DNA of 32,000 bases from Candidatus Hermodarchaeota archaeon (GCA_048886185.1 JBHLKY010000019.1:60001-92000), one strand, 5' to 3'. Shown: positions 3,960 through 31,200, counted from the stretch's first letter. Numbers and translations: made by a program. Notes: generated by a model not told the origin, from the letters alone.

Positions 3960-3972
3960 TGAAGGAATTTTT

Positions 3973-4863: not shown

Positions 4864-4865
4864 CA

Positions 4866-5654: not shown

Positions 5655-6448
5655 GAAAAAAAACAGTTCTAGATGTTATAGAAATGATGAATAAGGGGGA
5701 AAAAATAACCATGCTGACTGCTTACGATTTTGTGATGGCATCTATCTTAGATGAAGCAGGAACGGATTTATTGCTTGTCGGGGATACAATGGGTATGGTA
5801 GTCCATGGAAATCCTACAACATTGACTGTGACTTTAGATGATTCGATTCGCCATACTCAAGCAGTCGCACGAGGGGCGAAACAAGCAATGGTAATTGGAG
5901 ATTTGCCCTTCGGAACATTCCAAGTTTCTGCAGAGGAAGCAATTCGTAATGCAATCAAACTAGTTAAAGTAGGTCATGCTGAGGCAATAAAGCTTGAAGG
6001 AGGAAGTGAGAGGAATGATTCTGTTAGAGGAATCCTTGATGCAGGTATCCCTGTCATGGGTCACCTAGGCCTGACTCCTCAATCAATTCATCGTTTTGGA
6101 GGTTTTAAAGTTCAAGGTAGGACTGAAGAGACAGCAAATTATCTTATTGAAGAATCAAAGAAGCTAGAAGAGGCTGGTATTTTTTCTCTTGTATTAGAAG
6201 CCATACCATGGAAAGTAGCTAAAAAAATTACTGAGTCGATTTCTATCCCAACGATTGGAATCGGAGCTGGGCCTTATTGTGATGGTCAAGTCTTGGTAAC
6301 TTATGATCTCTTGGGTTACTTTGATTTCGGAGCAAAATTCGTTAAAAGATATTTAAACCTTAAGGAACAGATCTTAGAAGCTATACGAGAATATAATAAA
6401 GAAGTTAGAGATGGTACGTTTCCAGATCTTAGCTATAGTTATGAATAA
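5651..6448 (+). CDS. panB: 3-methyl-2-oxobutanoate hydroxymethyltransferase
   Basis: LTAYD, LLVGDTMG, GDLPF, KLEGG, GHLGLTPQ and TIGIGAG..CDGQVLV..DLLG. ATGA overlap with pps. Confidence 0.97.
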   Translation: MRKKTVLDVIEMMNKGEKITMLTAYDFVMASILDEAGTDLLLVGDTMGMVVHGNPTTLTVTLDDSIRHTQAVARGAKQAMVIGDLPFGTFQVSAEEAIRNAIKLVKVGHAEAIKLEGGSERNDSVRGILDAGIPVMGHLGLTPQSIHRFGGFKVQGRTEETANYLIEESKKLEEAGIFSLVLEAIPWKVAKKITESISIPTIGIGAGPYCDGQVLVTYDLLGYFDFGAKFVKRYLNLKEQILEAIREYNKEVRDGTFPDLSYSYE

Positions 6449-7589: not shown

Positions 7590-9974
7590 TTATAAGAGAT
7601 AGCCCTTTTCTGACAGAGTTCTAGGTAACAAATTATTCTGAATCAAGGACTCAAAAATAATTCTGATGTCATTCCTAGAAATGTTTGTTTCACGACTGAT
7701 TTCTTCCCAAGGGATTAACTTTCTTATTTGCATTTCAGGTTGCTTTACATAATCAATAACTTTACTAAGAGCCTTTTTTTGGGTCATTACTTTGTTTTTA
7801 TCCAAAGAGATTATTAAATTGCTATCCTCTGAAATTATTTCTCTAACTATCGTTTCATTTTTCTTATCTTTAATAATTTCAAGGATTTCTAAAAGCTCTT
7901 GGAGAGAAAATTCTTCCCTATATTCTATGATTCCTTGAATTTCCTGATTAATGCCTTTTGAGGTTACAAACTCTCCCACTGCATTAGTAAATCCTCTGAT
8001 AAAAAGGATATTTTCAACTATTTTATAAAGGATTTTTGGATTCAAATCTAATTTGAATCCTAGAACATTAAAATTGATTCTTCCTTGAGTTTGAATTTCT
8101 TTTTCAACTTTAGCTATCAAATCTTCAGTGAAGAAATAATCAGTGTCAGGAGTAGTTCTACCGCTAAATTCTTGTGTGATAAAATCGAGAATAACTGGTT
8201 TTGTTGTGCTAGCTATTTTTCCAAATTTTACTTTTTGTAAGAATTCAGAGATAGAAAGATAGCCTTTACCAATGATATGTTGTTGAAGCTGTGGATGAAG
8301 ATTCTCTAGAGTGATTAATTGTCCATCACTTGCTTGATAGGTTTTTATATCCATTAATTTCTGTAGGCTTTGTAAGAATCTAGGAAATTCGATATTAATA
8401 TGTTTTAAAAGATGAATTACTCTTGATTCATCAATTCCTGAGGAATTCTGTTCTAGTTTCTGAAATTCTGTTATTTCTAGAAAAACATTGATTTCTTCAA
8501 GCCATACCCCTTTAAACTTGTCTTCAACAATCTCTTTTAACGTGGAAATTTCGATTTTAGGATTTCCGATTTGAGTTATAAATTTCTTAAGCGAGACAAT
8601 CTTATTACTTTCTATCTGATGTTTTAACTGAGTCTGTAGATATTCTTTTGTAAGGTATTCATTTTGAGAATTATACCATCCATCTTTTGATGGATTTAAA
8701 ATTGGAATTAATTCTTTTTTAACTACATCATTAGATTTATTGATCTCTGTTGCAATACTTGGAATTTGAAGAATTCCTGAGCTTTTAAATTCAGTAGAGA
8801 TATTGTTAAAGCACTCTACTGTTAAATAAAGGTCTTGATTAACTTGATGACTTTGTGGAATAGTGGAGATTAATTGCTTTAATATCTCTAGTGAAACCTG
8901 TCTGAAAGGATCTTTTTGTTTTATAGTTGGAATGTGAATGGAGTTATTCTCTTCTAACTCTGTTATCAATAATCTCTTTAGACCTGTTTCTGTTAAATAA
9001 GTGTCATCAAAAAGAGGAATCAGCTTTAAGTTTAATATTTTTGTAACTAATACCTTTATAGCAACTACATTGGACTGTAATTCCGCAGCAAGTTCTGATA
9101 AGACCAACCTGTCTTTTGCTATTAACCGTGTTTGGAGATCTTTTATCGCAAAAGCCATTTGAGAAGTAAGGGAGGAGACTGATGAATCAAAGTTTTGTTT
9201 TGTTGTGTCGGTTCCATGTTGGAGTGAAGCGATTAAATCAATTCTCCCTTTTGATATGACTTCAGACGTGATTTCCTGTTCATTTTTTTTAAGAAAAGCC
9301 GCTGCTGTTTCTCTAACATAGTCATTTGGGTCTACAAGGTTTTCTATAAATGGTAATATAAGTTCCCGTCCTCCCATATGTTCCAAGGCTGACCCTGCTT
9401 GATTACGTGTCCAATCATCATACCCAGGATTTCGCATGATTTCAACAAGGGTGCCAATTGCTTTTGGTGTCTTTAACTTTCCAAGGGCATATATTATTGA
9501 TCTGCGAAGACCACCAGTTTCTGATTTTAATAATTGCAACAATTTTACTTCTACTCCCTCAATTTGGTGTGCAACAACAAGTTCCATTGCAGTCTTTCGA
9601 ACCACCTCTGCCTGATCATTAAGACTTCTCATTACTTGTGGTTTAAGCTGGGGATGATTCTGTTTAGCAAGCCATTCAAGAGCTAATGACCGAATCCCTG
9701 GACTTGGATCTGAAAGTGCTGAAGAGACTAAAGATTCAACTGTTTTTACGTCTGGAAGAGCTTCTATTAATGTTATTAGTGCTTTTTCTCTAATATTCTT
9801 CTCTGGAGCTTTAGTAAAAGGTAATAACGATTTGACGATCATACGGAAGCGAAAATCCGCGGAATTTGGGTTTGCTTGTAAATATTTTTGCAGATTGTTT
9901 ATTGAAGTCCATTTGAGATCGATATCCTTTGATTTAAGGCCTTTAAGATCATTCAATACGGATTCTTCGGACAT
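7590..9974 (-). CDS. HEAT-repeat protein with C-terminal tandem winged-helix (PCI/UFL1-like) repeats
   Basis: Start reassigned to ATG 9974 (MSEESVL; residue 40 of the track ORF). HEAT repeats: LSDPSPGIRSLALEWL, LNDQAEVVRKTAMEL, LVDPNDYVRETAAAFL. C-terminal units recur as YLT...[L/I]..E...[GRI/RLV].L.EL (e.g. FFTEDLIAKVEKEIQTQGRINF, YLTKEYLQTQLKHQIESNKIVSL). Confidence 0.75.
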   Translation of the reverse strand: MSEESVLNDLKGLKSKDIDLKWTSINNLQKYLQANPNSADFRFRMIVKSLLPFTKAPEKNIREKALITLIEALPDVKTVESLVSSALSDPSPGIRSLALEWLAKQNHPQLKPQVMRSLNDQAEVVRKTAMELVVAHQIEGVEVKLLQLLKSETGGLRRSIIYALGKLKTPKAIGTLVEIMRNPGYDDWTRNQAGSALEHMGGRELILPFIENLVDPNDYVRETAAAFLKKNEQEITSEVISKGRIDLIASLQHGTDTTKQNFDSSVSSLTSQMAFAIKDLQTRLIAKDRLVLSELAAELQSNVVAIKVLVTKILNLKLIPLFDDTYLTETGLKRLLITELEENNSIHIPTIKQKDPFRQVSLEILKQLISTIPQSHQVNQDLYLTVECFNNISTEFKSSGILQIPSIATEINKSNDVVKKELIPILNPSKDGWYNSQNEYLTKEYLQTQLKHQIESNKIVSLKKFITQIGNPKIEISTLKEIVEDKFKGVWLEEINVFLEITEFQKLEQNSSGIDESRVIHLLKHINIEFPRFLQSLQKLMDIKTYQASDGQLITLENLHPQLQQHIIGKGYLSISEFLQKVKFGKIASTTKPVILDFITQEFSGRTTPDTDYFFTEDLIAKVEKEIQTQGRINFNVLGFKLDLNPKILYKIVENILFIRGFTNAVGEFVTSKGINQEIQGIIEYREEFSLQELLEILEIIKDKKNETIVREIISEDSNLIISLDKNKVMTQKKALSKVIDYVKQPEMQIRKLIPWEEISRETNISRNDIRIIFESLIQNNLLPRTLSEKGYLL

Positions 9975-10121
9975 ACCACTCACTAAAGCATAAGTATGTG
10001 ATTCTAGTCTCTTTACTCCAAAACAACATATAAGGATATTTATTCTTAGATATATATTTCCTCCAAGAAGGATTCTTCTATATCTCGACATAATTTATTA
10101 GAGTGCTGTTTATAGGCTGCT

Positions 10122-11192
10122 TCATATTTTTGCTGGATTACGAATGAAAGCTGATACAAGCTGAATTGTGTGATGAATGTCCTCTAGGGACAGTAAAGAT
10201 GTTGGAGAGTGAATATATCGGCAGGGAACTGAGACAACTGAAGAGGGTATTCCACCTCGTGTTTGGTGGATCCTTCCAGCATTAGTCCCACCAAAGATTG
10301 GCTTTTTAATGTGAAATGGAATATTCTCATGTTTAGCATTTTCTATTAAACGCTTATTTACAAAGGGGTGAGCAATCATACTATTATCCGCTACTGAAAT
10401 AGTAGGCCCTTTACCAATGTATGCTGGGCACTCTGAGTCTTTAATTCCTGGAACATCCCCAGCTGTGGTGTTTTCAATAGCTAAAGCGATTGTAGGTTCC
10501 AACGTGAAAGCTGCTGGTCCAGCGCCACGCCCCCCAATTTCTTCCTGGGTAGAGAAACTGAAAAGAAGAGTATCAGATGGAAAATTTATAGCAAATTCCT
10601 TTATCAGATGAATAAGAACATTAACTGCTGTCCTGTCATCGAAGGCTTTACCTCTAACCATATTGTTTGGAAATTCAACAAAAGGATCATATAGAGTACC
10701 CACAGATCCTATTTGAATACCACAGGATTCCACCTCATCCCTAGTTGTCAAACCTATATCAATATACATATCGCTGACTTTCACAAGGTTTTTCCTCTCA
10801 CTTTCTGTAGTTAAGTGTGGGGGCTTTGACCCAATTATACCATGATATTCTTTTCCATCATTTGCAAGAATCTTGACAGCTTGTCCTAAGAGAGTCCTAG
10901 AATCCCATCCACCAATGGGTACAAAACGAAGAAAACCTCCTCTAGATTCAATATAACTTATCATAAATCCTATCTCATCAACATGACCATCAACCATGAT
11001 TCTATCCTTGGGATTCTCTCCTTCCTTGACAGCTAATAAAGATCCAAGGGGATCAACCCACATCTTGTCAACCGCTCCTTCAATTTGGCTTTGAATAAAG
11101 TCAACAACTGGTCTTTCGTGGCCAGAAACTCCTATAATTTCTGATAATTGCTTTTGTAGGGATTTAATTCCTTCAAGATCTATTTTTTTCAT
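10122..11192 (-). CDS. M42 family metallo-aminopeptidase (TET/FrvX-like)
   Basis: GVSGHE, GHVDEIG, PIGGWD, KAFDDR, QEEIGGRG, ENTTAGD and RYIHSP provide the full two-metal ligand set. Confidence 0.95.
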   Translation of the reverse strand: MKKIDLEGIKSLQKQLSEIIGVSGHERPVVDFIQSQIEGAVDKMWVDPLGSLLAVKEGENPKDRIMVDGHVDEIGFMISYIESRGGFLRFVPIGGWDSRTLLGQAVKILANDGKEYHGIIGSKPPHLTTESERKNLVKVSDMYIDIGLTTRDEVESCGIQIGSVGTLYDPFVEFPNNMVRGKAFDDRTAVNVLIHLIKEFAINFPSDTLLFSFSTQEEIGGRGAGPAAFTLEPTIALAIENTTAGDVPGIKDSECPAYIGKGPTISVADNSMIAHPFVNKRLIENAKHENIPFHIKKPIFGGTNAGRIHQTRGGIPSSVVSVPCRYIHSPTSLLSLEDIHHTIQLVSAFIRNPAKI

Positions 11193-11803: not shown

Positions 11804-12520
11804 CTATCCTGGAAAATTTTTGCTTTCTCGAATAAAACGAGCTGGGGTTCCAGCGTAAATTGTATTTGGAGGGATTTTTTGTCCTTTTGTTACAAGAGAA
11901 TTCACCCCAATCACACTGTTGTCTCCGATCTCTGCACCTGGAGCAATAATTGTATTTCCTCCTATTGTAACATTTCTCCCAATTTTAACTGCTGCAATTG
12001 TCAGATATTGATTTTCTGTAACATGAGCAGCAATGATTGCACGCAATCCAATGAAACAGTTATCACCAATTGTAACTAGATGCGAATCAATCATTGTACC
12101 TGATGAAAGATATACATTCTTTCCAACATTCAAACCATATAATCTAAGGAATTTTGCCAAAAACATGGAATATAGATGAGGAATAAAACTAAAAGCTTTC
12201 AACATTGATTTAAAAATCCCTGGAGAGACAATAGTGACACCATATAATTGAGCTAAATCAGAACCATGATAGTATCTTCCTGGTTGTATTTTTGGTAAAA
12301 ATAAACGACAAATTATCTGGGAATGAATGATTCCAAAAGCGATTGAGGAAATGAAGTAAAGAATGGGTAAAAACATTGCTATAATAAGCCAGAGAAGAAA
12401 ATCATTCACTGAAATCATCAATAAATATACAGATATGAACTCTGGTAGAAAAACTGCCATAAAAGTTATGGCTGTGAAGAAAAAATATCCAAATAATCGA
12501 AATTTTGTTATAAATTTCAA
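11804..12520 (-). CDS. Membrane-anchored left-handed beta-helix (hexapeptide repeat) acyltransferase, paralog 1
   Basis: Two N-terminal hydrophobic helices, then LRLYGLNVGKNV, VTIGDNCFIG, AAH (putative catalytic His), VKIGRNVTIG, EIGDNSVIG and YAGTPA. Confidence 0.88.
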   Translation of the reverse strand: MKFITKFRLFGYFFFTAITFMAVFLPEFISVYLLMISVNDFLLWLIIAMFLPILYFISSIAFGIIHSQIICRLFLPKIQPGRYYHGSDLAQLYGVTIVSPGIFKSMLKAFSFIPHLYSMFLAKFLRLYGLNVGKNVYLSSGTMIDSHLVTIGDNCFIGLRAIIAAHVTENQYLTIAAVKIGRNVTIGGNTIIAPGAEIGDNSVIGVNSLVTKGQKIPPNTIYAGTPARFIRESKNFPG

Positions 12521-12551: not shown

Positions 12552-13322
12552 TTAGTGAGGGATGATTTCTTTTACCTGTTTAACCGTTTCAGACGCTTTA
12601 ATAACAAGTTTCTCCAGTCCAGATGCGGGGTCTCCGTCAACATAAAGTAATAATCCCTCGCTAATTTTATAGGCAACTAAATTAGTCGCCTCTGAAGATA
12701 CAACTAGATATCGTAAATTCCTCATATATGTTGAAACATTTAAGAGACGAATAGCTCCCTCCATTCGTGTTTGATCCATTTTATATTCGAGTAGAATATC
12801 CCCAGTGAATGAAACAATCATGGCACCCCTTACTCCTATGTTTTTTTGTTGGACTAATTTTTTCAGATAAAAGAGAGCAGCATTTTTTGAGCTAGTTAAC
12901 ATCTCACGAGTTTCACCCAAAAAGACTTCGTCAACATGATTTTTGAATGGTTCAAATATATCTGTTTCAATAATTTGCATTTCTTCCGCCCGTGTTCCAT
13001 ATTCTGCTAAAAAAAGACTCGAAATAGTAGTTAATTTAAATTGTAAGTCTAATGGACTTACAAGAGGAGAAGCTAATATAGCGAACACTAATCCACCTCT
13101 TTCAATGAAGGAGAATCGGAGATCTGTCATATCAACAACTTTCAAATCGCTCAATGATGTTGATTTAGCGAAAGTGAACATAGCTGTCAAAAAAGCTACT
13201 ACTAGATGGGCATCTGGTGTTTTAGTATCATGAGTTTCGTAAGATCGCGTAAATAGTGTGTTTCCTGTTTCTTTTTCAAAAATGAAAAAAGCTTTTATTG
13301 TCTTGAATTTCTCTAAAGCCAT
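12552..13322 (-). CDS. Longin-domain plus roadblock-like-domain protein
   Basis: N-terminal longin pattern FFIFEKETGNTLFTRSY...LVVAFLTAMFTFAK...VVDMTDLRFSF...VFAILAS...FLAEY...FEPFKNHVDEVF. C-terminal roadblock-like GVRGAMIVSFTGDILL...LVAYKISEGLLLYV. Confidence 0.75.
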   Translation of the reverse strand: MALEKFKTIKAFFIFEKETGNTLFTRSYETHDTKTPDAHLVVAFLTAMFTFAKSTSLSDLKVVDMTDLRFSFIERGGLVFAILASPLVSPLDLQFKLTTISSLFLAEYGTRAEEMQIIETDIFEPFKNHVDEVFLGETREMLTSSKNAALFYLKKLVQQKNIGVRGAMIVSFTGDILLEYKMDQTRMEGAIRLLNVSTYMRNLRYLVVSSEATNLVAYKISEGLLLYVDGDPASGLEKLVIKASETVKQVKEIIPH

Positions 13323-13337
13323 GTTGAACTGAACTCC

Positions 13338-13907
13338 TCATTCATCTAAGATATATTTCTTAGCTGTAAGATTTAAGATTCTGGTTGTCATAGTTTGAAA
13401 AGCCTCATTTACATTTTGTCCAGTTTTAGCAGAAGTTTCAACATAATCAATGACATGCATTGCTTTTTGGATTCTTTTTGTTTGAGAACTCGTAAATGCT
13501 CGTTCTTGCTTCAAATCCGCCTTATTTCCAATAAGGATCGATAAACATTTTGGAGAAACTTTTAGAACTTGTGATTGCCACCTTTCTTGCATATTGAGAA
13601 GTGTTTCCCTACGGGTCAAGTCAAAAACATAAAACGCTCCAAGAGCTCCTTTTAAATAGAGATGTGAGTATGAAACATGCCTAGCCTGGCCAGCAATGTC
13701 CCATACTTGTAATGATACAGTCCGTTGTACATCTTTTGTATCAATAAACTTTACTGTTTTAGTAAGAAAATCAACTCCTAAACTCATGCTATATTCTTCT
13801 CGGAACTTATTCTCAATAAAGCGTAATATTAATGATGTTTTACCTACTGCCCCATCACCTAATAGTAATACCTTCAAAATATGTTTAATTTCTTTACCTT
13901 TAGCCAA
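13338..13907 (-). CDS. Rab-like small GTPase (Ras superfamily)
   Basis: G1 GDGAVGKT, switch I YSMSLGVDF, G3 WDIAGQ, G4 NKAD, G5 ETSAK. Start reassigned to TTG at 13907 (MAKGKE), preceded by SD-like GGAGATGGT; about 189 aa. Confidence 0.93.
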   Translation of the reverse strand: MAKGKEIKHILKVLLLGDGAVGKTSLILRFIENKFREEYSMSLGVDFLTKTVKFIDTKDVQRTVSLQVWDIAGQARHVSYSHLYLKGALGAFYVFDLTRRETLLNMQERWQSQVLKVSPKCLSILIGNKADLKQERAFTSSQTKRIQKAMHVIDYVETSAKTGQNVNEAFQTMTTRILNLTAKKYILDE

Positions 13908-14197
13908 ACTACCATCTCCAGCTTTAATGAGTGTCCCGAGACGATTAATGGAATTATAATAATAAAAGGAATATAGTGTGCACCATTTCAAAAGCTTTTC
14001 TTCGAATATTAAAAAGATAGTAACAGTAATAAAAAGGAATGTTCGAATGTGAATAGGAAATATGGTATTTGCTTTATTGTGAAAAGCCAAAAAAAGAATC
14101 TCTGATCCTTCTCGATATTTCAAGGAAAAAATTTGATGAGTAGTCATGCAAATTCTCATAAAGCCTCTTATCTTAGTGCATAGAAGAATTTTTTAGG

Positions 14198-14498: not shown

Positions 14499-16196
14499 TT
14501 ATAATAAAAATTCCTGCCCTTCTAAGGGGAAAAATATTTTCGAATAAGTATTAAGGATTGGAATTTTATTTATTACTTCCGATCCTAAATGAATAAGGGC
14601 CATCCTATCAGTTAATGATGCAAGTTTGGTTATCTGGTGATAATTTAAGTGCATTTCATGTGTTGTGTTTAAAAAATTACATTCAGAAATTGTCAATTGA
14701 GTTTTTTTAACAAGATGGTGTAATTCATCTGTCCACCCAGTATCACCTGAATAAGCAATAGAAAGATCTTTCATTTCTAATCTATATCCTTGAGCTTCAG
14801 GAGTATGAAGCATTTTAAAAGCTCTGATGATTAATCCATCCATCTTCAATGGAGAATTAGATGGTGTAAGAACTGAGAATTCACAATAAAAAGGGAGCTT
14901 TTCTTCTGCGATGTTTCCATATAATGCTGAGTAAAGATCATTTGTCTTTCTGTCAATCTCTGGAGGGCCAATGATCATCAGTGGCTTTTTCCTTCGTTGA
15001 AAAATGCCAGCTTCTAGTAGAAAGAACGGAATCCCACCAAAATGATCCCCATGAAAATGGGAGATAAGGATTATATCAACATTATTGGTTTCTCTGCGTG
15101 ATTTCTTTAATGCCTGTATTGTGTGGGGGCCACAATCCAATAGAATTCCTTTATCACCAATTTCTACAAAAACAGAGGCACTTTTCCCTCCCCCTGATCC
15201 AAAAGCGTCTCCAGTTCCTAAAAACACAATATTCATCTTATGAGTTCTCTTTGGTTTGATTATTGTTCCAACAGCTTCTCCATTCAAAGCAGTGCTGAAC
15301 TCTTTGAGTCCTACGACCCAACATTTGGTGTGAGATTTTGCTAATTCAATGATATTCTTCAATTTACCGGTCATTTCATTTGTAACATCAAAGTTTCCTT
15401 TAGTTTTAACATTCTGAAAGGAAAGGATTTCATCATTAATACCAAAATATGATATTTCGTCCGCGTCAACTTCAATTCGAGAAATAAATTTAGCATCAGA
15501 GAAACTTGGATCCTTCGTATATATTCCAGTCCGTTTTCCCTCCACATTAGTAAGAAATATGACTGAATCTAAACGAGTAATGTTAAGACGTCTTGTCAAA
15601 GCTGCAGGATAGATATCACCAGAGAATACTTTCCAACCGCTTGATGTAGAACCAACATCTCCATAAAAAACTGGTACTGCTGTAGTTTCAGTAATTATTT
15701 GTTCAAAAATTGTTAGATCAAAAGCATCAGCTTTTTTTGATGAAGTATTTTCTGTTGGAACACCTCTTAAAATGGGATGGGAAGGGAAAGAGATAGCATT
15801 TATACCATTTTTTATGGCTTCAGATACAATTATTTGATTCTGAATGGCAACTGCAAGTTTGATGAAAGGGTATTGAATATCGAGATCTGAATGGTTCTTT
15901 AATAAATGAATAACCAAGGAATGTCCTATTGAACCAGCCCCATGAATTAATGCTAATTTCCTTTTGGGATTTTCAGCTAAAAACGACGATAAAATCTTAA
16001 GGATTTCATTAAGATAATCAAAGTTAACTAAATCAATAATTTTCTCAGTTAATGTTCCTAATGAACCTGTACCTGATTTAAAGAAGTCTATTTGATCTAA
16101 ATATTGTTTAATGCGATAAGAATCTTTTTTATAAGTTATTAAGCTTCCACCCATTTTAACTAACGTGATTGGCGTTTTCTTCATTCTTTTCACCAA
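14499..16196 (-). CDS. Isopentenyl phosphate kinase (amino acid kinase family) fused to an MBL-fold metallo-hydrolase (RNase Z/phosphodiesterase-like)
   Basis: N-terminal part: LVKMGGSLITYK, LIHGAGSIGH (IPK His), PVFYGDV, FSGD, IYTKDP, DVTNEMTGK, GTII. C-terminal part from 15236: FLGTGDAFGSGG, LLDCG, SHFHGDH, HTPEA, YSGDT, ECN. The reading frame is continuous across the junction. Confidence 0.85.
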   Translation of the reverse strand: MVKRMKKTPITLVKMGGSLITYKKDSYRIKQYLDQIDFFKSGTGSLGTLTEKIIDLVNFDYLNEILKILSSFLAENPKRKLALIHGAGSIGHSLVIHLLKNHSDLDIQYPFIKLAVAIQNQIIVSEAIKNGINAISFPSHPILRGVPTENTSSKKADAFDLTIFEQIITETTAVPVFYGDVGSTSSGWKVFSGDIYPAALTRRLNITRLDSVIFLTNVEGKRTGIYTKDPSFSDAKFISRIEVDADEISYFGINDEILSFQNVKTKGNFDVTNEMTGKLKNIIELAKSHTKCWVVGLKEFSTALNGEAVGTIIKPKRTHKMNIVFLGTGDAFGSGGGKSASVFVEIGDKGILLDCGPHTIQALKKSRRETNNVDIILISHFHGDHFGGIPFFLLEAGIFQRRKKPLMIIGPPEIDRKTNDLYSALYGNIAEEKLPFYCEFSVLTPSNSPLKMDGLIIRAFKMLHTPEAQGYRLEMKDLSIAYSGDTGWTDELHHLVKKTQLTISECNFLNTTHEMHLNYHQITKLASLTDRMALIHLGSEVINKIPILNTYSKIFFPLEGQEFLL

Positions 16197-16466: not shown

Positions 16467-18113
16467 ATGAAAATTACTAAGATTATCTTTATCATACTTC
16501 CTACAAGCATCGTGTGGTTAGTTACAGCTCCTTTTCTCCTAGTTTATGCTTTTGATTTGCTTGAAATAGACATAAATCAGAGTTTATCCAGTTCTGGTGT
16601 GATTCTTCTATTTTTTACTGCAATTTTCGCCACTTTTTCCTTGTATTTATCTGGATACATCATTGATAAGAATCCACAGGTAATCAACACATTAATCACA
16701 GGATCTTTGATAATGAGTGGGATTAGTCTCTTCATCACAGTTCTAGGTGTTGATTTTTTTATTTTTCTTATATTAGGATTGATAAGTCTTGGTTTTTTCT
16801 TGGGAATATTAGCATCAGGAGCTAGTGCACTATATACAGCACATTCAGAGGTCCACCACCGAGGACGTATTTATGCCAGTGCCCTATTCATCAGTGCAAT
16901 TATATCACTAATCATTATCCTATATGTTGAACTCTTTAAGCTAGATATTCGAATTCCTCTCCTTATTATTAGCAATTTGGCGATTCTTGCTGCAATCCTT
17001 TTCTATTATGTTTCTCGCTCATCATCTCCTTGGGTGAATGATAAATTCCCTACTCCAATCAAACATATTATTAATCGGAGATCAGTTAAAGCTTATTTGG
17101 TCGCTCATTTCTTCTTTTATTTTATGCTTGGAATAGCTTTTGCTACTCTATCCCAGATCGGTCATTCACGGTATCCCGATCTACTAGTTACTCTGCCATT
17201 CCTTGGAAAGCTGGCATTAGATCAGACAAAATTATTTTGGATCATTGTTTTCTTTGGTGATTTACTTTGTGTATTACCAATGGGGTGGTTTTCTGATCAT
17301 TTTGGAAGAAAGAACCTTGTTGTAATGGGTTTTTATGGAGTCGTAGTTGCAGCATTAATTGTAGGCTTAAGTGAAAATCCAATAATGTTCTACTTCTCTG
17401 CGTATCTATTAGGGGTCAGCTTTTCAGCGATCCATCCCTCTCTTGATAGTGCTGTATGGTGTGACTTAAGCCCTCTTGACTCTGTAGGACGATATAATGC
17501 CTTAGGTTTCGTTTTTTTACTACAAGGAGTCGGATGTGGTTTAGCGATGGGCATATTTATACTTCCCTTAAGTCCTAGTACTATTAGTTATGTCCTTTTT
17601 GGTTCAGCTGTTTTTGGATTATTTCCCCTCTTTTTTGTAGCAGACTCTTTTGAACCTCTTGATATCTACCTTCTCTTAATTGCTACAAGCGGAATATGCA
17701 TGTTTAATTACGATTTTGAAAGACCAGATCAAAGTAAGATTACTGAAAAAGATCTAGCTCTTGTGGCCGGCGCCTTATCAGCTATTAGTACATTTTTCGA
17801 GGGGATAAGCCAACAACCTGCTGTTTTAGATCTTGTTCGTCATGGTAAAGTGGTGACTTTCCAAACAAAAGGAGGAACAGAGAGAAAGGAGCTCATCGCC
17901 ACAATTTTTACCAACAAGATGGATCCTGAGCTACAACAAAGCCTAGATAGTTTCTTAGCAAGATTTTGTTTATCTTATCATAACGAGATAAATGAGTGGA
18001 TTGGTCAAACTAGTGTTTTTGATCCTGCAATCAGTATCGCTGAAGATGTTTTTGGTCCTCTTATTCCATCTAAAACAGTATTAAGAAGTTTAAAAGAGTC
18101 AGAGATTAACTGA
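16467..18113 (+). CDS. 12-TM MFS transporter fused to a C-terminal longin domain (copy 1)
   Basis: About 12 hydrophobic segments, MFS motif A GWFSDHFGRK and loop HHRGR. From about 17655 a soluble longin pattern: LLLIATSGICMFNYDF...LVAGALSAISTFF...LDLVRHG...IATIFTN...FLARFCLSY...W.G...F. Confidence 0.85.
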   Translation: MKITKIIFIILPTSIVWLVTAPFLLVYAFDLLEIDINQSLSSSGVILLFFTAIFATFSLYLSGYIIDKNPQVINTLITGSLIMSGISLFITVLGVDFFIFLILGLISLGFFLGILASGASALYTAHSEVHHRGRIYASALFISAIISLIIILYVELFKLDIRIPLLIISNLAILAAILFYYVSRSSSPWVNDKFPTPIKHIINRRSVKAYLVAHFFFYFMLGIAFATLSQIGHSRYPDLLVTLPFLGKLALDQTKLFWIIVFFGDLLCVLPMGWFSDHFGRKNLVVMGFYGVVVAALIVGLSENPIMFYFSAYLLGVSFSAIHPSLDSAVWCDLSPLDSVGRYNALGFVFLLQGVGCGLAMGIFILPLSPSTISYVLFGSAVFGLFPLFFVADSFEPLDIYLLLIATSGICMFNYDFERPDQSKITEKDLALVAGALSAISTFFEGISQQPAVLDLVRHGKVVTFQTKGGTERKELIATIFTNKMDPELQQSLDSFLARFCLSYHNEINEWIGQTSVFDPAISIAEDVFGPLIPSKTVLRSLKESEIN

Positions 18114-18295
18114 TTACCAATATTATTACTATGATGACTGTTACTTCAAAATAAAAAGGATGGGTAAGTAAGTTAATAAAGTTCCCCAGATCAATAAAAT
18201 ATTAACATTTTTCTACGAGAATATCAAGAAAGGAAGAAAATTACTAAATAAATATTATGATATACGTTGTAAAATAGATAACAGAATCCTATATA

Positions 18296-19972
18296 ATGTC
18301 CAATGTGATAAAAGTGAAAATCAAAATAATTTTGACCGTAATTATCCCAAGTATATTCTCTTGGTTGTTAGCTTCCCTATTACTCTTGGTTTATTCTTTT
18401 GATATTTTAGATAAAGTAGAATCGTCAAAAAACAATCCTTTTCTCGGATTTGGAATGTTGATATTGGGTTTTGTATTGTGTTTGGTTATCTTCATGCTTT
18501 ACTATACTGGCTCTGTACTCGATAGCCATCCAGAATATTTATGGCTTTCTGTGATAATAGGGATGGTGGGGAGCTCTATTTCAGTTATTATTTCAATTAT
18601 ATTTTTTGAGGAATATATAATATTGATGATTGGATTGATATGCCTTGCTTTCTTTTTCGGAATATTGTTAACAAGTAATGGAACACTGTTTGCTGGGTTA
18701 ACAGATATGTGGCACCGAGGAAGAGTATATTCATATTGTATCTTCATCTTTATTGCTATTGCCTTACTTAGTATCCTCTTTGGGGGAGTATTTTCGCATG
18801 AATATGAGAGGATTTACCAAAGTGGGATTTGGACTTATAGCTTCACAAGTGTGTTAGTTGTTGTTGGTATTCTTGGACTTATATTTGCTTTAATTTTTTT
18901 CCTTTTAACCCGTAATCTAGGTATCCCTTGGCAAAATGATAAATGGCCAACAAAATTTTCCAAAATCATTGGACGAAGGTCAGTTCGAGCTTATATACTC
19001 TCACACATTTTATTATATACGATGCTTGGTATTTCTTTAGCTAGTTTTTCTCGAATTGGAGAGTTATTGGAAATTTCTTGGGCAATAGGGGAGTATGATC
19101 TCCCTGTTGATAAAACGTTTTGGTTTTTCGTCCTACTTGGAGATCTCCTAGTGATTTTACCTGCTGGGTACCTTGCGGATCGTTTCGGACGAAAAAATTT
19201 TATTGTTGCTGCAATTTATGGATTAGTATTTGCATCATTGATTTTTGGGCTAGAAAAGTCTCCCAATAGCTTCCTCATTGCTGCTTTTGGTATAGGTTTT
19301 TCTTTTGCAATGCTCCATACAACACTAGACTCCTCTTTATGGGCTGATTTATCTCCTCGGGATGGTCTTGGCCGTTATTACTCGATTGGGTTTATTTCAC
19401 TTGCACTTGGTCTTGGAATTGGCTCTGGATTTGGTCATTGGGTTTTAACACCTATGGTTACTGATCTTTCGGGATTAGAATTCATTACATACCTTATAAC
19501 TATTTTAGCAGTTCTATCGGCTTTACCTTTGTTCTGGGTATCAGATAGTTTCAAACCACTTGATTTTACGCTCCTTCTTGTTATTGAGGAAGGAGGACTA
19601 CCAATCTTCGATTACACATTTACAAAAGATATAGATACCAGTATTGAATTAACATTACTTTCAGGAGCTCTCAAAGCCGTATCCTCTTTTATGTCCGAAA
19701 CCATGAAAGACAAAGGCGATTTGAATCTAGTAAGACATGGTAACCACTTTATATTGACTGAAAAAAAGAATGGAACATCTGCTGCTATTTTTAGTAATAA
19801 ACAGGATCCAGAATTACATAAAGCTCTTCGAGAATTTCTTGAAAAGTTCTGTATTAAGTATAATGAAACGCTTAAAACATGGCGTGGAGTTCGGTCTCTA
19901 TTTGATGGTGCTGTTGATATTGCAGAGGAAGTTTTTGGATATCTATCACCTTCAACGAACCTTGAAGAATAA
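18296..19972 (+). CDS. 12-TM MFS transporter fused to a C-terminal longin domain (copy 2, paralog)
   Basis: GYLADRFGRK and WHRGR. From about 19556: LLVIEEGGLPIFDYTF...LLSGALKAVSSFMSETM...LNLVRHGNHFIL...AAIFSNKQDPEL...FLEKFCIKY. Alternative GTG start at 18314 (VKIK aligns with MKIT of copy 1). Confidence 0.85.
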   Translation: MSNVIKVKIKIILTVIIPSIFSWLLASLLLLVYSFDILDKVESSKNNPFLGFGMLILGFVLCLVIFMLYYTGSVLDSHPEYLWLSVIIGMVGSSISVIISIIFFEEYIILMIGLICLAFFFGILLTSNGTLFAGLTDMWHRGRVYSYCIFIFIAIALLSILFGGVFSHEYERIYQSGIWTYSFTSVLVVVGILGLIFALIFFLLTRNLGIPWQNDKWPTKFSKIIGRRSVRAYILSHILLYTMLGISLASFSRIGELLEISWAIGEYDLPVDKTFWFFVLLGDLLVILPAGYLADRFGRKNFIVAAIYGLVFASLIFGLEKSPNSFLIAAFGIGFSFAMLHTTLDSSLWADLSPRDGLGRYYSIGFISLALGLGIGSGFGHWVLTPMVTDLSGLEFITYLITILAVLSALPLFWVSDSFKPLDFTLLLVIEEGGLPIFDYTFTKDIDTSIELTLLSGALKAVSSFMSETMKDKGDLNLVRHGNHFILTEKKNGTSAAIFSNKQDPELHKALREFLEKFCIKYNETLKTWRGVRSLFDGAVDIAEEVFGYLSPSTNLEE

Positions 19973-19974
19973 TA

Positions 19975-20871
19975 ATGAGTGATAACATGCTAAGTAATCT
20001 GCTTTATCGTTTGAGAGTACCGAACATTGTTGGTTCATCACTTTTTGCTTTTACTGGATTAATACTGAATCTACGTCAGCCTCACACGTTTGAAATGTAC
20101 AGAGCTCTTCTAATTGTACTTTCTATGATATTCTTCAATATCTTCATCTGGATTTCAAATGACTATTATGATGCTCCATATGATGCTGCTGATGCTTATA
20201 AGAGGGCAAGAAACGTATTTTGCGGGAAATCAGAAAGTCGAGATTATAAGATTGGAATGACTTTAATGGTTTTTTCAATACTATCGGGATTAATTAGTGG
20301 ATGGTTTGCTGGTCTTATCTATTTTTTATTTGCTGTCGCAGGAATGCTTCTTGCATATTTTTATAACAGTCCAATTTTTCGTGCAAAGAGTCGGATTGGT
20401 TTTGATTGGATTTTTCATGTAATCTGGTTTCAAATCACATTTCTTCCCCTATATTTGTATATTTTTGGTTTTGATGTAATTTGGGGTCTTGAGACAAAAC
20501 ATATTCAATTTTATTGTGTTTTTCTTTCAATTTCTTTACTGTCATTGTTAGCGCAAATAAATCATCAGATTCCCGACTATTCTCTAGATCTTCATACAGA
20601 ACAAAGAACAACCGTTGTTGCTTTAGGGATAGAAATTACGTTAAAGCTTAGATACATATTTTATTTTTCTATCTCTATTGCTGTTTTTATTCTTTGTATA
20701 CTAAACAATACATTCATTGCTTTGTTAATGATGATTATCTATACTCTATACATGTTAAAGACTGATAAAACGAAAGCAGCAGATGCTCCTTTACCATGGT
20801 TGTACTTTTTTGTACTAGATTACCTAATTCTCTCTCCAATATTATCCAATATTTTTTCAATATTATTATAA
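19975..20871 (+). CDS. UbiA-superfamily intramembrane prenyltransferase
   Basis: First Asp-rich motif NDYYDAPYD, then YNSPIFRAK, and second motif NHQIPDYSLD...RTTVVALG. Multiple TM helices. Starts 2 nt after MFS-longin copy 2. Confidence 0.88.
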   Translation: MSDNMLSNLLYRLRVPNIVGSSLFAFTGLILNLRQPHTFEMYRALLIVLSMIFFNIFIWISNDYYDAPYDAADAYKRARNVFCGKSESRDYKIGMTLMVFSILSGLISGWFAGLIYFLFAVAGMLLAYFYNSPIFRAKSRIGFDWIFHVIWFQITFLPLYLYIFGFDVIWGLETKHIQFYCVFLSISLLSLLAQINHQIPDYSLDLHTEQRTTVVALGIEITLKLRYIFYFSISIAVFILCILNNTFIALLMMIIYTLYMLKTDKTKAADAPLPWLYFFVLDYLILSPILSNIFSILL

Positions 20872-20893: not shown

Positions 20894-21559
20894 GTGGTCC
20901 TGTTCCTTATTATTCAGCTTTTGTTAACATTAAGCCTTATTATCCTTTTTCTACTTGTTTTTACTGGAGTTACTTCATTTGAGGTTGATTTAATCCCTTC
21001 ATTGGTTATATCCCTCTTTCTAACCTATTTTTTGACGCTTTTTCTTCTAGCTAGTATGCACAAGATTTCAAGAGTTTTAATGAAAAATAAGGAAGGTGAG
21101 ATAGATGGTACGGATTTAATCTTATGGACAATTCAAGCCACAAGCTTGGACATTGCTATAACATTAACTCGAAAGTTAATTATTCATTCTCCTTTTCCAG
21201 ATGTCCTTTTTAGATTATTTGGTCTAAAAATTAAGAAGGGGGTTTCAATATTAACTCCTCGTATCTGGGATCCCGATCTTATTGAAATCGGGGAGAACAC
21301 TTTAGTGGGTACAAACACCCTAATATCAGGACATCATATAAGGAGGGGTAAAATGTTCCGAAGACGAATTATTATTGGGAAAAATGTCACAATCGGAGCT
21401 GATTGTGTCATTTTACCAGGTGTAGTAATTGGAGACAATACTATAGTTGGTCTTGGCTCTAGTATTCCACCTAACCAAATACTGGATGCCAACAGTCTAT
21501 ATAGTGGTGTTCCAGTGAAAAAGCTGAAATCTTTGACCATTAAAGATTCAGAGAATTGA
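20894..21559 (+). CDS. Membrane-anchored LbH acyltransferase, paralog 2
   Basis: Two TM helices, FRLFGLKIKKGV, IEIGENTLVG, SGHH, IIIGKNVTIG, VIGDNTIVG and YSGVPV. Confidence 0.88.
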   Translation: MVLFLIIQLLLTLSLIILFLLVFTGVTSFEVDLIPSLVISLFLTYFLTLFLLASMHKISRVLMKNKEGEIDGTDLILWTIQATSLDIAITLTRKLIIHSPFPDVLFRLFGLKIKKGVSILTPRIWDPDLIEIGENTLVGTNTLISGHHIRRGKMFRRRIIIGKNVTIGADCVILPGVVIGDNTIVGLGSSIPPNQILDANSLYSGVPVKKLKSLTIKDSEN

Positions 21560-21617: not shown

Positions 21618-22292
21618 TTAAAGTTCTTTGGGATCAATTTCTTTAACTTTTTTAACTGGCACACCAGAATAAATGCAATTTGAATCAAGCTTCCAATTTG
21701 CAGGTACAAGAGATCCTGCACTTACCATTACATTATCTCCAATTTCTGCTCCTGGTAAAACAGTGGAGAGAATGCCGAGGGTGCAATTTTTTCCAATTTT
21801 AATACGCTTTCGATAGAGTCTTCCCCTCCGTATATGATGAGCAGTTATCATCGCATTTGTTCCTATTAATGTCCCCTCTCCCACATCAATAAGCTCTAAG
21901 TCCCATAAATCTGCCATAATACTCACCCCTTTTCTTTTCTTAAAACCAAATAATCTCATGAGTATATCTGGAAATAGTGGTAATAAGATTATTTTCTTTG
22001 TAATTATCCGGGCTAAATCCCAGGTAGTTTCCTTGATTGTCCATAAAATTTTCTCTAATCCAGCCAATTCTCCCTCTTTATCGCGAAGTAATACCCTAGA
22101 AGTTTTGTTAATTGAAGCTAAGCCAAACAATATTGTGAAATATGATATTAGGAATGTTAGTATAATCACTATGAGAATTTCTATAATGGAAGGGAAAAAA
22201 AATAAATCTTGAGAGAGAACTCCAAGAAATACAAAATAAACAATCGTGATACAGAGACATATTAGGATTAATTGAATAATTAGATAAATCAT
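21618..22292 (-). CDS. Membrane-anchored LbH acyltransferase, paralog 3
   Basis: Colinear with paralog 2 (KEGE, ILWTI, RLFG, HHIRRG, IGKN, YSGVPVKK). ATG at 22292, with an alternative GTG at 22295. Confidence 0.88.
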   Translation of the reverse strand: MIYLIIQLILICLCITIVYFVFLGVLSQDLFFFPSIIEILIVIILTFLISYFTILFGLASINKTSRVLLRDKEGELAGLEKILWTIKETTWDLARIITKKIILLPLFPDILMRLFGFKKRKGVSIMADLWDLELIDVGEGTLIGTNAMITAHHIRRGRLYRKRIKIGKNCTLGILSTVLPGAEIGDNVMVSAGSLVPANWKLDSNCIYSGVPVKKVKEIDPKEL

Positions 22293-22317
22293 CACATTAA
22301 CACTTTGTTTGAATCCT

Positions 22318-28275: not shown

Positions 28276-31200
28276 CTAAATAATTTGTTGATTTAATTTT
28301 AAGAATTTGGCTTTCTCCTCTAATTTTTTAGCTTCATCATCATTACCCAAACCACTCAAACATTCTGACCAGATCTGATAGATCCTGAAATCTAATGGGT
28401 TGACTTGTTGAGCTTCTTTTAGTATTTGAACGGTTTTTTCAGGTTCTCTTTTATCTAAGTGAATTAATGCAGTTGCTAGCATACTATTTAATTCTGAAGG
28501 ATTAATGGAAATTGCTTTCTCAAACATTTCCTCTGCTTTAATATTATTCCCCTTTTGATTGTAAATAAATCCCAAAGCATGATAAACCTCTGGAGGTTGA
28601 GGATAATTTTCAATAATAGAGATAAACATCTCTAAATTACGTTCTAGAAAAAAATATGCCTCTTTTCTTATATTTACATTTGGGTTAGACAGTAAATCGA
28701 GTATCTTCATTGTAATTGGGGAATATCGTGAGAATGATAGGTTTATCTTTGTATCTAATAGTTGCCAAACTTGATCACGTACAAGTGGATTCTGATCTTC
28801 CAATTTGTTTATAATTTGATTGAAAATAGTTTCATGCTCCAAATCCTTGATGTTAATGCAAGATAATAAGAGAGAAACCGCTTTAGCCCTAGTATCATCA
28901 TATATGCTATTGAGGGAGGTTGTAATTACTGATAATATCTTTGAATCCAATTCTTTGATTTTAAATAAGTTATATTGAATGATGTTCCAAGAAATGGTTC
29001 GTATTTTAAAGGAATTATCGTTAACAGAAGTTAATATAGCTTCTTTAAGCTTGTTAAATTGTAATACTGAAAGATCAACGCGTTTATCAATTTCTATTAA
29101 TAATTTAATTCGAATTGATTCCTGTTGACGACGCATGAGGTTAACAATTCGTAGGGGTGTGCTTAATCCGATGTCACTTCTGAAAATTTCCATGAATCCA
29201 AATCTATCAATACCCTGCTTGATTTGATTTAATATTCTTTCTTTAAATTTAATTTCTATCTCATCTAATTGCGGATGATTGATCTTTTGAATAAAATCAA
29301 ATTTCCTTTCTAAATTTAACCACTTTTCTAGTCTTTTATCGTCATTAATACTATTAAAGAGAAACTCCTCTACATTAAACTCAAGAAGGTCTTTCTCTAG
29401 GCTTTCAAACAGAACATGAATCGGTTGAGATGAAGTATGAAAAGTTTGTGCGTTTTTACTAGTAGGTTCTCTTAATAGACCAATTATCATATTTTGGAAA
29501 TCTATTTCTTTTAATTCATTTCTACTATCTTCAATGAGAAAATGTATAAGAAATGGAATGAGCATTTCTTGCACATCCCATTGTCCTTCTTCAATTAATT
29601 GGGATATTAATTGTGGCTGAAGAAAATTCAGCAATCCTTGAGTTGTAAGAATGATTAATATTTTCTTTTTTAATTCCCTTGGGATATTCTTTTTGGAAAG
29701 GATTCGAATAAATTGGTCTAGAATAATTTCATTACCATTAATTAAATTATATTTATGATAAGTTTCACAAACAAAGATCGCAACTCTGGAATCGATGTCC
29801 TCAAGATTCTCTGAAAGTTGAAAGATAAATTCTGAAATATAAGAAAAAACTTCTTTGTTTCTTGTTACCAAATTCCAAGCCTTAGAAAGCACCTTGGAGT
29901 TTTCATCCTCCAAAAGGGTTGTGAAACTTAGAAGAATGATGTTCTGATTAGTTCTCCAAAATTCTATGTCCTCATGTAAAAATTCACAAGCTTTTAAACG
30001 TACATCTGGATTAGGATGATTGAATAATGTTATTAATTCAGAAATAAAAATCTGATACTGTTTATCTGATAGTTCTGTTTTCTTCAACAACAACCAAGCT
30101 TTTTCCCTTACATTATTATCGCTTTCACTGAGTAATTTTAAAATAGAACTAAATGTCGTTGGGAAATATTTATCATAATTAGGAACATTTAATAAACTTA
30201 GTAGGTTATTCAAGGCCTCATTACTGACCAATTTTTTCGGATCTTCTAATAACCAAATAATTTTTCTAAAAATGTCTTCTTTCCTCTCCTTAAATGCATC
30301 ATATCGTTTAGATATAATATTACAGGCAGTTCTCCTGACCTGTTCATGCATATCAGTAGTTTTTTCACTTATTTTTATCAATACATCTTTGAATTCGTCT
30401 TTATCTAAATCTAAATGATGGTTAAGTGATATAGCAGCGCTTTCTCTCACTTCCCAATTAGGGTCATCAAGGGCGGCCAATAAAGCTTCCACAGTAATTT
30501 TATTTTTTTGTTCCTTTAAGGATTGTAGAATTGGTAGTGTTTCGCAGATATTCTTTCTCACACGCCATTCTGGATGCCAAAATAATCCAATAACTTTATC
30601 CCAAGTTTCTTGATTATCTAGAAAGCCATATGTTACCATACTCTTTAGAGCGATTTTCTGGACACGCCATGATGGGTCCAATAACCTACATTCTAAGATC
30701 TTCCCAATATCATGTCTATATTGGTCAAAATTCAACATTTGATTCAATATTTCGCATGCTAATCGTCGAACCTCACGATTTTCATCCTTAGACAATATTG
30801 AAAAAACATCAATGGCTTGTGAAGAAAGAAAATGAGGTTTTTTCCAGAAAATCATACAAATTCCTTTTTTCACATCACTGTCCTGATTGACTAAGATCTC
30901 TAGAATCCCAGATAGAAGTTCGGGATATTTCTCACAAAGGTTCTTTAAAAGAAAGATAAGAACTCCTTGAGCAAAAATTGCATTACTAGTTAAAATTCCA
31001 TTTAAAATACTCTTCATGGATTCAGTTAACGGTAGTAAAAATAAAATCTTTGTGCATCGAAACCATAAATCTTGTTTTATTTCCTTATTATCAAATACTT
31101 TAACTAATAATTTCATAAGATGCTCTTTAGACTCTGAAGAATATTCAATATAAAAGCTCAGAACTTTTTCAGCCTGATTTCGAACATAATAATTTTCATG

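Follow-up and report, generated by a model that had tools for sequence, protein, structure and literature searches.

Tandem MFS permeases of an Asgard archaeon end in a cytoplasmic longin-fold domain that is predicted to dimerize

What does a longin domain do at the end of a transporter? The question is raised by two adjacent genes, here called A and B, in a 32,000-nucleotide stretch of DNA from a Candidatus Hermodarchaeota archaeon (GCA_048886185.1 JBHLKY010000019.1:60001-92000; 34% GC), which we refer to as the window. Each gene encodes a permease of the major facilitator superfamily (MFS) that continues into a longin-like tail. Asgard archaea have dozens of Ras-superfamily GTPases without lipid anchors and many longin and roadblock domains, and the field has yet to settle how, or whether, such GTPases work at membranes (PMC4917890, PMC10933270). 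An earlier interpretation made from the DNA alone, the sequence-only reading, had proposed that the products of genes A and B relay solute binding to a small GTPase. We followed up this proposal computationally and favor, with moderate confidence, the explanation that both genes encode divergent, complete 12-transmembrane (12-TM) permeases whose tails pair in the canonical way as a dimerizing, docking or regulatory longin platform.

Gene A (positions 16467 to 18113, plus strand) encodes a protein of 548 amino acids (P0001), and gene B (18296 to 19972, plus strand) encodes one of 558 amino acids (P0002). The two proteins are 38% identical over their full length by pairwise alignment (E 4e-114), so that the original description of two adjacent paralogous genes for 12-TM carriers stands. 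Pfam MFS_1 (PF07690) recognizes both, with 50.4 bits for A and 59.8 bits for B against a gathering cutoff of 33.4. The 12-TM MFS domain of gene A spans residues 1 to 394 (16467 to 17648, plus strand), and the start codon at 16467 (ATG) is supported by the invariance of the N-terminal residues P12 and W17. By hydropathy only, P0001 shows 12 hydrophobic segments, with a basic central loop of 25 residues. Its predicted cytoplasmic loops carry 11 lysines and arginines versus 3 in the outside loops, as expected of a typical MFS protein, whose N and C termini are both cytoplasmic. The segment count and the charge bias thus agree with the earlier claim of a cytoplasmic tail, a placement that is well supported by sequence. 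Orthologues of gene A at 45 to 79% identity occur in Hodarchaeales and Heimdall metagenome-assembled genomes (MAGs). The 182-bp spacer between A and B contains an AT-rich stretch, a run of five T residues and TATA-like words, which do not decide between joint and separate transcription of A and B.

The MFS body has kept only part of the family signature. Motif A of gene A lies in the cytoplasmic loop between helices 8 and 9 (residues 272 to 285; 17280 to 17321, plus strand; GWFSDHFGRKNLVV), where it is intact as GWFSDHFGRKN against the consensus GxxxDrxGRK, with D277, R281 and K282 invariant in an alignment of 28 homologues. The corresponding loop 2-3 (GYIIDKNPQ) is degenerate and retains only G63 and D67 of the motif. 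The sequence-only reading had described both loops correctly as to the presence and the degeneracy of the motif. Two intramembrane residues of gene A, D265 and H323, are also invariant in the 28-homologue alignment. A search of the MFS body against PDB sequences gave no matches, and all NCBIfam matches were far below their cutoffs. Judged by its sequence, the MFS body is very divergent and gives no substrate assignment.

The tail begins almost directly at the membrane. In gene A, helix TM12 ends near residue 393 and the first tail strand starts at about residue 400, leaving a linker of about 6 residues before a domain of 140 to 150 amino acids. The cytoplasmic longin domain of gene A spans residues 395 to 548 (17649 to 18110, plus strand), and that of gene B spans residues 419 to 558 (19550 to 19969, plus strand) and matches the A2 tail profile with an E value of 1.7e-52. 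Conservation of the tail equals or exceeds that of the permease (67% mean column identity in A2 versus 62% in A1). We modeled the tail by AlphaFold2 (AF2) from a 149-sequence alignment of the domain (A3) and obtained a model with pLDDT 89.9 and pTM 0.83. The model has the topology β-β-α-β-β-β-α-α plus two short helices, and DSSP assigned strands at residues 6 to 13, 16 to 22, 63 to 65, 68 to 76 and 81 to 88 and helices at residues 33 to 53, 93 to 109 and 111 to 115, in addition to two further helices. This model superseded one made from the shallow 28-sequence alignment (pLDDT 56.8), with which Foldseek had found nothing at an E value of ≤1e-3, the list being already mostly longin and roadblock proteins.

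When the 149-sequence model was compared with the PDB by Foldseek, there were eight matches at an E value of ≤1e-3, and every one was a longin protein. The top matches were Bet5 (3cue_C; E 8.4e-5, TM-scores 0.61/0.65), TRAPPC1 (2j3t_C; TM-scores 0.64/0.68), Trs23 and Mon1/Ccz1, with E values from 8e-5 to 4e-4, and VAMP7 was also among the matches. VIA, which is independent of Foldseek, ranked the VAMP7 longin domain highest (Z 13.1 over 119 residues, 2.7 Å), followed by MON1A (12.6), Sec22 (12.4) and TRAPPC1 (12.4). VAMP7, MON1A, Sec22, TRAPPC1 and synbindin all had Z scores of 11 to 13 over 119 to 138 residues, and a Lokiarchaeota longin dimer (8yqg_B) scored 11.6. Roadblock domains reached only Z 8 to 10 over 85 to 108 residues. 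A roadblock/LC7 domain of the MglB type, which has the order α-β-β-α-β-β(-α) with a helix at its N terminus, was also considered and rejected: the tail opens with two strands right after TM12 and has no N-terminal helix, and the roadblock matches are shorter and weaker.

Profile searches led to the same group of proteins. The A3 profile matched Bet5 best among PDB sequences (E 0.003), followed by Trs23 and TRAPPC1, and searches of the PDB with a single sequence or a shallow profile returned only designed helical proteins and Nup192, which we took as noise. Pfam Sybindin (PF04099) gave 14.5 bits against a cutoff of 25 over 48 residues of A only and nothing for B; because this score is below the cutoff, we file the tail as a longin fold and not as a member of Pfam Sybindin or Longin (PF13774). 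A longin-fold domain nearest to the TRAPP Bet5/TRAPPC1 type is therefore well supported as a model-based assignment, and AF2, Foldseek and VIA all bear out the earlier suggestion of a longin domain directly after TM12.

The fusion is a stable feature of its lineage. MFS-longin frames of about 550 to 570 amino acids were present in 20 of 20 sampled genomes of the same genus and in 2 of 2 from another family of its order, and at the search stringency used none were found in the other searched families of the class. A gene-fusion, assembly or frameshift artifact is ruled out, since the single open frame is kept in more than 20 genomes. The named records come from Hodarchaeales, Hodarchaeota, Heimdallarchaeota or Promethearchaeota MAGs, with a sole exception labeled Thorarchaeota. 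Hodarchaeales is the archaeal order proposed as nearest to eukaryotes. In a maximum-likelihood tree, A, B and a third paralogue, C, each formed a clade with support of 100/100, and the three grouped together at 96/89; outside them were a clade D and more distant MFS-longin fusions, one of which is labeled Lokiarchaeota. The distant proteins also match Pfam MFS_1, the majority above the cutoff. In nearly every genome with both genes, A and B are neighbors; in G102 and G280, about 4.8 kb separates them. Three species (G119, G181 and G190), whose genomes are 84 to 93% complete, each carry one B-type gene, in the syntenic position, together with a C-type gene, and no A-type gene was present in these genomes.

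We predicted the complex of the two tails, A and B, from one 149-row alignment per tail. The ipSAE was 0.76 (0.79, 0.76 and 0.76 in three runs), compared with 0.01 for the best control; 58 of 80 solved complexes attain the mark by which such predictions are judged, as do 2 of 110 mismatched pairs. The three runs shared at least 93% of contacts, with a partner pLDDT of at least 83. The predicted interface is formed by helix α1 (residues 31 to 54) and strand β3 (58 to 68) of both chains, as in canonical longin/roadblock dimers, and G41 of the GALSA motif in α1 is at least 90% conserved in the 149-sequence family alignment. The A and B tails are thus predicted to pair through the canonical α1/β3 interface. 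Clade-specific fixed differences at this interface (V39L, I46V, F50M, D61N and V68H) do not decide between homo- and hetero-pairing. An obligate A-B heterodimer was rejected, since G119, G181 and G190 have B and C and no A. Of the heterodimeric platform that the sequence-only reading had envisaged, the canonical pairing of the tails is retained as a prediction, and an obligate A-B partnership is unlikely.

These results suggest an arrangement in which each gene would provide a complete, divergent 12-TM MFS permease whose last helix runs through the short linker into a cytoplasmic Bet5/TRAPPC1-like longin; the architecture, topology and fold come from sequence or model. The tails would pair with α1 against α1 and β3 with β3, giving one continuous sheet, with A pairing with B where both are present and, in genomes that lack A, B pairing with a second B or with C. 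The predicted interface is two-fold symmetric, which puts both TM12 connections at the same height along the axis; with these connections level, the tails would hold two permeases side by side above a flat longin platform that lies beneath the membrane with its sheet parallel to it. We infer this side-by-side geometry, and likewise any docking of a partner. The platform would most likely be a dimerizing and docking or regulatory module that links the state of the transporter to a cytosolic partner, and by analogy the leading candidates for that partner would be a non-lipidated small GTPase or another longin or roadblock protein.

Several points weigh against this explanation. MFS transporters are usually monomeric in function. 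The complex prediction may have passed because the model has memorized longin dimers of solved structure, and close cousins pass too, so that an A-B pair is not separable from a homodimer of either tail. The interface is enriched in residues that do not vary in either A or B (11 of 28, versus 19 of 126 elsewhere; Fisher p 0.007), but α1 and β3 also hold core residues, and the enrichment is therefore not independent support. Moreover, the three species with B and C and without A mean that A-B pairing is not required.

The tail domain is far more widespread than the MFS fusions. A profile search of 1.84 billion representatives found 829 proteins at an E value of ≤1e-3, and the domain was C-terminal in 129 of 142 aligned top matches. 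Hydrophobic segments preceded the domain in 108 of 148 matches, numbering at least 10 in 32 of them and 4 to 9 in 50. There were recurrent classes of about 370 amino acids with 6 to 8 TM segments, about 720 to 750 amino acids with 12 to 15 TM segments and about 1,000 amino acids, and a Pfam scan of these three membrane-longin classes found no domains. Atlas clusters for the 370- and 750-residue classes are annotated "hypothetical protein" and are 93 to 100% Archaea, mostly Promethearchaeota (Asgard). On sequence evidence, the tail family is large, unnamed and mostly Asgard, and its usual place is the C terminus of polytopic membrane proteins.

We also scanned the source genome (4.84 Mb, 96% complete) with the narrow A2 tail profile. 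It holds three MFS fusions, which are A, B and C (C at C7:63660-65312). The other matches were a 14-TM protein of 871 amino acids, an 8-TM protein of 391 amino acids, a HerA/DUF87 ATPase, tetratricopeptide repeat (TPR) proteins and stand-alone copies, one of which matches Pfam Longin (E 5e-4). The ATPase (883 amino acids; G000:C8:117330-119981, plus strand) has its longin domain internally. It lies tail to tail with the gene for the 14-TM protein, which ends in a longin domain of the tail family (C8:120052-122667, minus strand), and the two genes are 71 bp apart; their products may be partners through their longin domains. A pair of tandem genes (G000:C34:1418-3652 and 3796-6036) encodes TPR proteins of about 745 amino acids, each with a C-terminal longin domain of the tail family.

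A small GTPase is encoded near the MFS pair, and we treat it and its partner gene as context only. The Rab/Ras-like GTPase of about 190 amino acids (13338 to 13907, minus strand; Pfam Ras E 3e-43) is followed, 15 nucleotides after its stop codon, by a gene for a 256-residue partner (12552 to 13322, minus strand). The longest GTPase open reading frame (ORF), 13338 to 14159 on the minus strand, would give 273 amino acids; the orthologues have 184 to 192, which makes the TTG at 13907 the probable start. The GTPase C terminus (…AKKYILDE) has no cysteine and thus no CaaX lipid anchor. In its N-terminal half, the partner carries a homologue of the MFS-tail longin domain (A3 profile E 1.2e-9, residues 2 to 138), with 23% pairwise identity to the A tail and a weak match to Fuz_longin_1. 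This unit lies on the strand opposite to gene A, 2.3 kb away and beyond a gene whose product joins an amino acid kinase-family (isopentenyl phosphate kinase-like) domain to a metallo-beta-lactamase domain (IPK-MBL; 14499 to 16196, minus strand).

The sequence-only reading had named this GTPase as one to check. It cast A and B as transceptors; spelled out, solute binding would be relayed through TM12 to the longin dimer, and the dimer would act on a small GTPase, for example the Rab-like one of the window, as its guanine nucleotide exchange factor (GEF), GTPase-activating protein (GAP) or membrane receptor. We consider this argument, attractive by its analogy with SLC38A9, Ragulator and the Rag GTPases, decidedly unlikely. 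It draws on the facts that GTPase-platform longin dimers are exactly the top structural matches of the tail, that the source genome has 62 GTPase ORFs by our count (58 by Pfam search), that the neighboring GTPase, lacking a cysteine for a lipid anchor, would need a protein receptor to reach the membrane and that the partner of this GTPase itself carries a longin domain homologous to the tails. The GTPase unit also remains near the MFS locus in CP070695.1, RDOB01000003.1 and JBQSBN010000014.1, where the identity of the A-type protein falls to 45%, and in the B-only species. However, the whole block of about 20 kb is collinear in those relatives, from ERCC4, HEAT and M42 genes through aminotransferase, TPR and PP-loop genes, so that the proximity of the GTPase is not specific to the MFS pair and carries little weight; we rejected synteny as evidence of function. 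Against the transceptor there is also the position of the GTPase gene on the other strand, behind IPK-MBL and already with a co-operonic partner. The longin-family ORFs of the source genome taken together are enriched next to GTPase genes, which favors the transceptor: 4 of 29 lie within 500 bp of one, versus a background of 2.7%, and these are two GTPase fusions, the 256-residue partner and a 567-residue protein; 8% of background ORFs there lie within 3 kb of one. In contrast, paralogue C is 70 kb from the nearest GTPase gene, and the other membrane-fused longins (871, 391 and 369 amino acids) are 22 to 105 kb away. Among about 10 MFS-longin lineages, 3 have a GTPase gene within 3.5 kb, against a background of about 9%, which is borderline (binomial p ~0.05). 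These are the A/B locus, P0187 (82 bp) and P0121 (3.3 kb), and none of the three has a GTPase as a same-strand operon partner; C, D (the P0057 locus), P0081, P0190, P0065, P0051 and P0055 have no GTPase nearby. Of these lineages, the distant P0187 gives the transceptor its closest neighborhood. The genomic association of MFS-longin genes with GTPases is suggestive at best.

Two of these loci have further neighbors of note. In P0187 (L048, SMTZ1_10000363, 1880 to 4943), the gene 82 bp on is a convergent Ras/Arf GTPase of 178 amino acids, accompanied by a 273-residue gene product with TIR_2 and Roadblock/LC7 domains. In P0055 (L052, DRR620298_46, 8001 to 11098), an actin-family gene lies about 370 bp from the MFS-longin gene on the opposite strand.

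Several enzyme genes surround the MFS pair in the window. A UbiA-family prenyltransferase gene (19975 to 20871, plus strand; Pfam UbiA E 2.7e-13) starts 2 nucleotides after the stop codon of gene B and is therefore probably cotranscribed with it. It is followed by a gene for a membrane-anchored hexapeptide (LbH) acyltransferase (20894 to 21559, plus strand; Pfam Hexapep). This is one of three paralogous LbH acyltransferases with hydrophobic N termini, the others being encoded at 11804 to 12520 (minus strand) and 21618 to 22295 (minus strand); the copy at 20894 to 21559 is 50% identical to the one at 21618 to 22295 and 32% identical to the one at 11804 to 12520. The copy at 11804 ends the GTPase unit as the copy at 20894 ends the MFS unit. 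The IPK-MBL gene is a conserved divergent neighbor of the MFS pair in all relatives examined. Two large HEAT-repeat proteins flank the region (7590 to 10091, minus strand, 833 amino acids; 28276 to 31344, minus strand, 1,022 amino acids, with C-terminal TPRs), and the former belongs to the conserved syntenic block.

These genes suggest another role for the locus, in which IPK-MBL, UbiA and the membrane LbH acyltransferases would produce an envelope or lipid compound, isoprenoid-linked or acylated, for A and B to export or flip, and the tail would only assemble the machinery. The conserved IPK-MBL gene, the UbiA and LbH genes behind B, an LbH gene about 20 bp after B in RDOB01000003.1 and JBQSBN010000014.1, and the paralogous LbH gene that ends the GTPase unit too all point in this direction. 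UbiA keeps its place in CP070695.1 but is missing from two of the three relatives examined, paralogues C and D sit in unrelated gene contexts and the MFS sequence allows no substrate inference, so we hold this role to be very doubtful; it is compatible with the platform explanation. A tail that works without any GTPase is also unlikely, although it accounts for several features of the proteins. By analogy with the C-terminal STAS domain of SLC26/SulP or with a SNARE longin domain, such an autoregulatory, sorting or assembly tail would dimerize, gate or stabilize the permease, or its role would be to bind either a small ligand or some protein other than a GTPase. The very short linker to TM12 suits direct mechanical coupling, and invariant residues in loop 6-7 (W189, N191, D192, P195 and T196) and loop 10-11 (D333, S335, P336, D338, G341, R342 and Y343) could form a tail-docking surface. 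In addition, the top VIA match, the VAMP7 longin, is an autoinhibitory, non-GTPase module, most membrane-fused members of the family have no GTPase neighbor, and the same domain is fused to a HerA-like ATPase and to TPR proteins. What argues against it is the predicted α1/β3 dimer interface, which is exposed and favors intermolecular pairing over a plug. The dimerizing longin platform remains the explanation that we prefer.

What the platform would mean depends on its partner. If the tails merely dimerize or regulate, they are still an undescribed type of C-terminal regulatory domain for the MFS superfamily and still correct the bare "MFS transporter" annotation. The family of longins welded to membrane proteins offers concrete candidates for the membrane-side partners of Asgard GTPases, here on a conserved Hodarchaeales transporter pair. 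A broader idea, again by analogy, is that polytopic membrane proteins, including the MFS pair, carry built-in longin dimers as membrane receptors or regulators for the non-lipidated Asgard GTPases; we would call it a long shot. Were it true, it would account for the arrival of unprenylated Asgard GTPases at membranes, and the MFS pair would be a covalent prokaryotic counterpart of SLC38A9-Ragulator-Rag in which the conformational state is passed through TM12 to a GTPase switch. Dey et al. described Loki GTPases without CAAX motifs and prenyltransferases (PMC4917890).

The literature on Asgard longins places these proteins in a familiar setting. Tran et al. described Asgard roadblock, longin and GTPase architectures without membrane fusions and noted that GTPase genes seldom share operons with roadblock or longin partners (2024; PMC10933270), and a preprint by Liu et al. 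listed 130 Roadblock/longin asCOGs with extensive domain shuffling (2020; 10.1101/2020.10.19.343400). In a full-text literature search, the supplementary tables of Liu et al. excepted, we found no description of an MFS-longin or membrane protein-longin fusion, and the public records of MFS-longin proteins are annotated only "MFS transporter" or "hypothetical protein"; this agrees with the sequence-only reading, which had named no characterized system of this architecture. The described Asgard longin and roadblock proteins (PMC10933270; Lokiarchaeota Roadblock-Longin, 8YQG; 10.1101/2020.10.19.343400) share with the tails the same fold, a phylum-wide expansion and domain shuffling, but they are stand-alone or fused to GTPases, TRAPPC3 or two-component domains.

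Among eukaryotic proteins, longin dimers such as Bet5-Trs23, Mon1-Ccz1, Fuzzy-Inturned, FLCN-FNIP and Nprl2-Nprl3 are GTPase platforms (PMC10933270). The closest to the tails are the TRAPP subunits Bet5/TRAPPC1 and Trs23/TRAPPC4 (3CUE, 2J3T and 7B6D), which gave the best Foldseek (TM-scores 0.54 to 0.68) and profile matches and have the same ββαβββαα order; the Bet5-Trs23 heterodimer pairs through α1/β3 as we predict for the A and B tails. Unlike the tails, which are fused to a 12-TM permease and are only 12 to 19% identical to them, the TRAPP subunits are soluble proteins that act as a Rab1 GEF, with Bet3-family subunits at their flanks. Mon1-Ccz1 and Fuzzy-Inturned (5LDD, 9LOL and 7Q3D), with VIA Z scores of 11.4 to 12.6 over 125 to 142 residues, are likewise paralogous longin pairs that form one platform. 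However, they are soluble tri-longin proteins that lipids or proteins recruit to the membrane, and their GEF activity is demonstrated. The longin SNAREs VAMP7, Sec22b and Ykt6 share with A and B a membrane-anchored longin, and VAMP7 is the top VIA match; in these proteins the longin, monomeric and autoinhibitory, is at the N terminus, ahead of a SNARE motif and one C-terminal TM helix, whereas A and B have no SNARE motif.

The known sensor transporters resemble A and B in concept. The yeast glucose sensors Snf3 and Rgt2 have an MFS body and a C-terminal cytoplasmic extension that serves signaling instead of transport, but this extension is a long, unstructured stretch whose short motifs bind Mth1 and Std1, and it contains no folded, dimerizing longin. 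SLC38A9 is a lysosomal amino acid transceptor coupled to the roadblock/longin platform Ragulator and to the non-lipidated Rag GTPases. It is thus a transporter tied to a roadblock/longin platform, as A and B would be, but it has an APC rather than an MFS fold, binds in trans through a disordered N-terminal tail and is not homologous to A or B.

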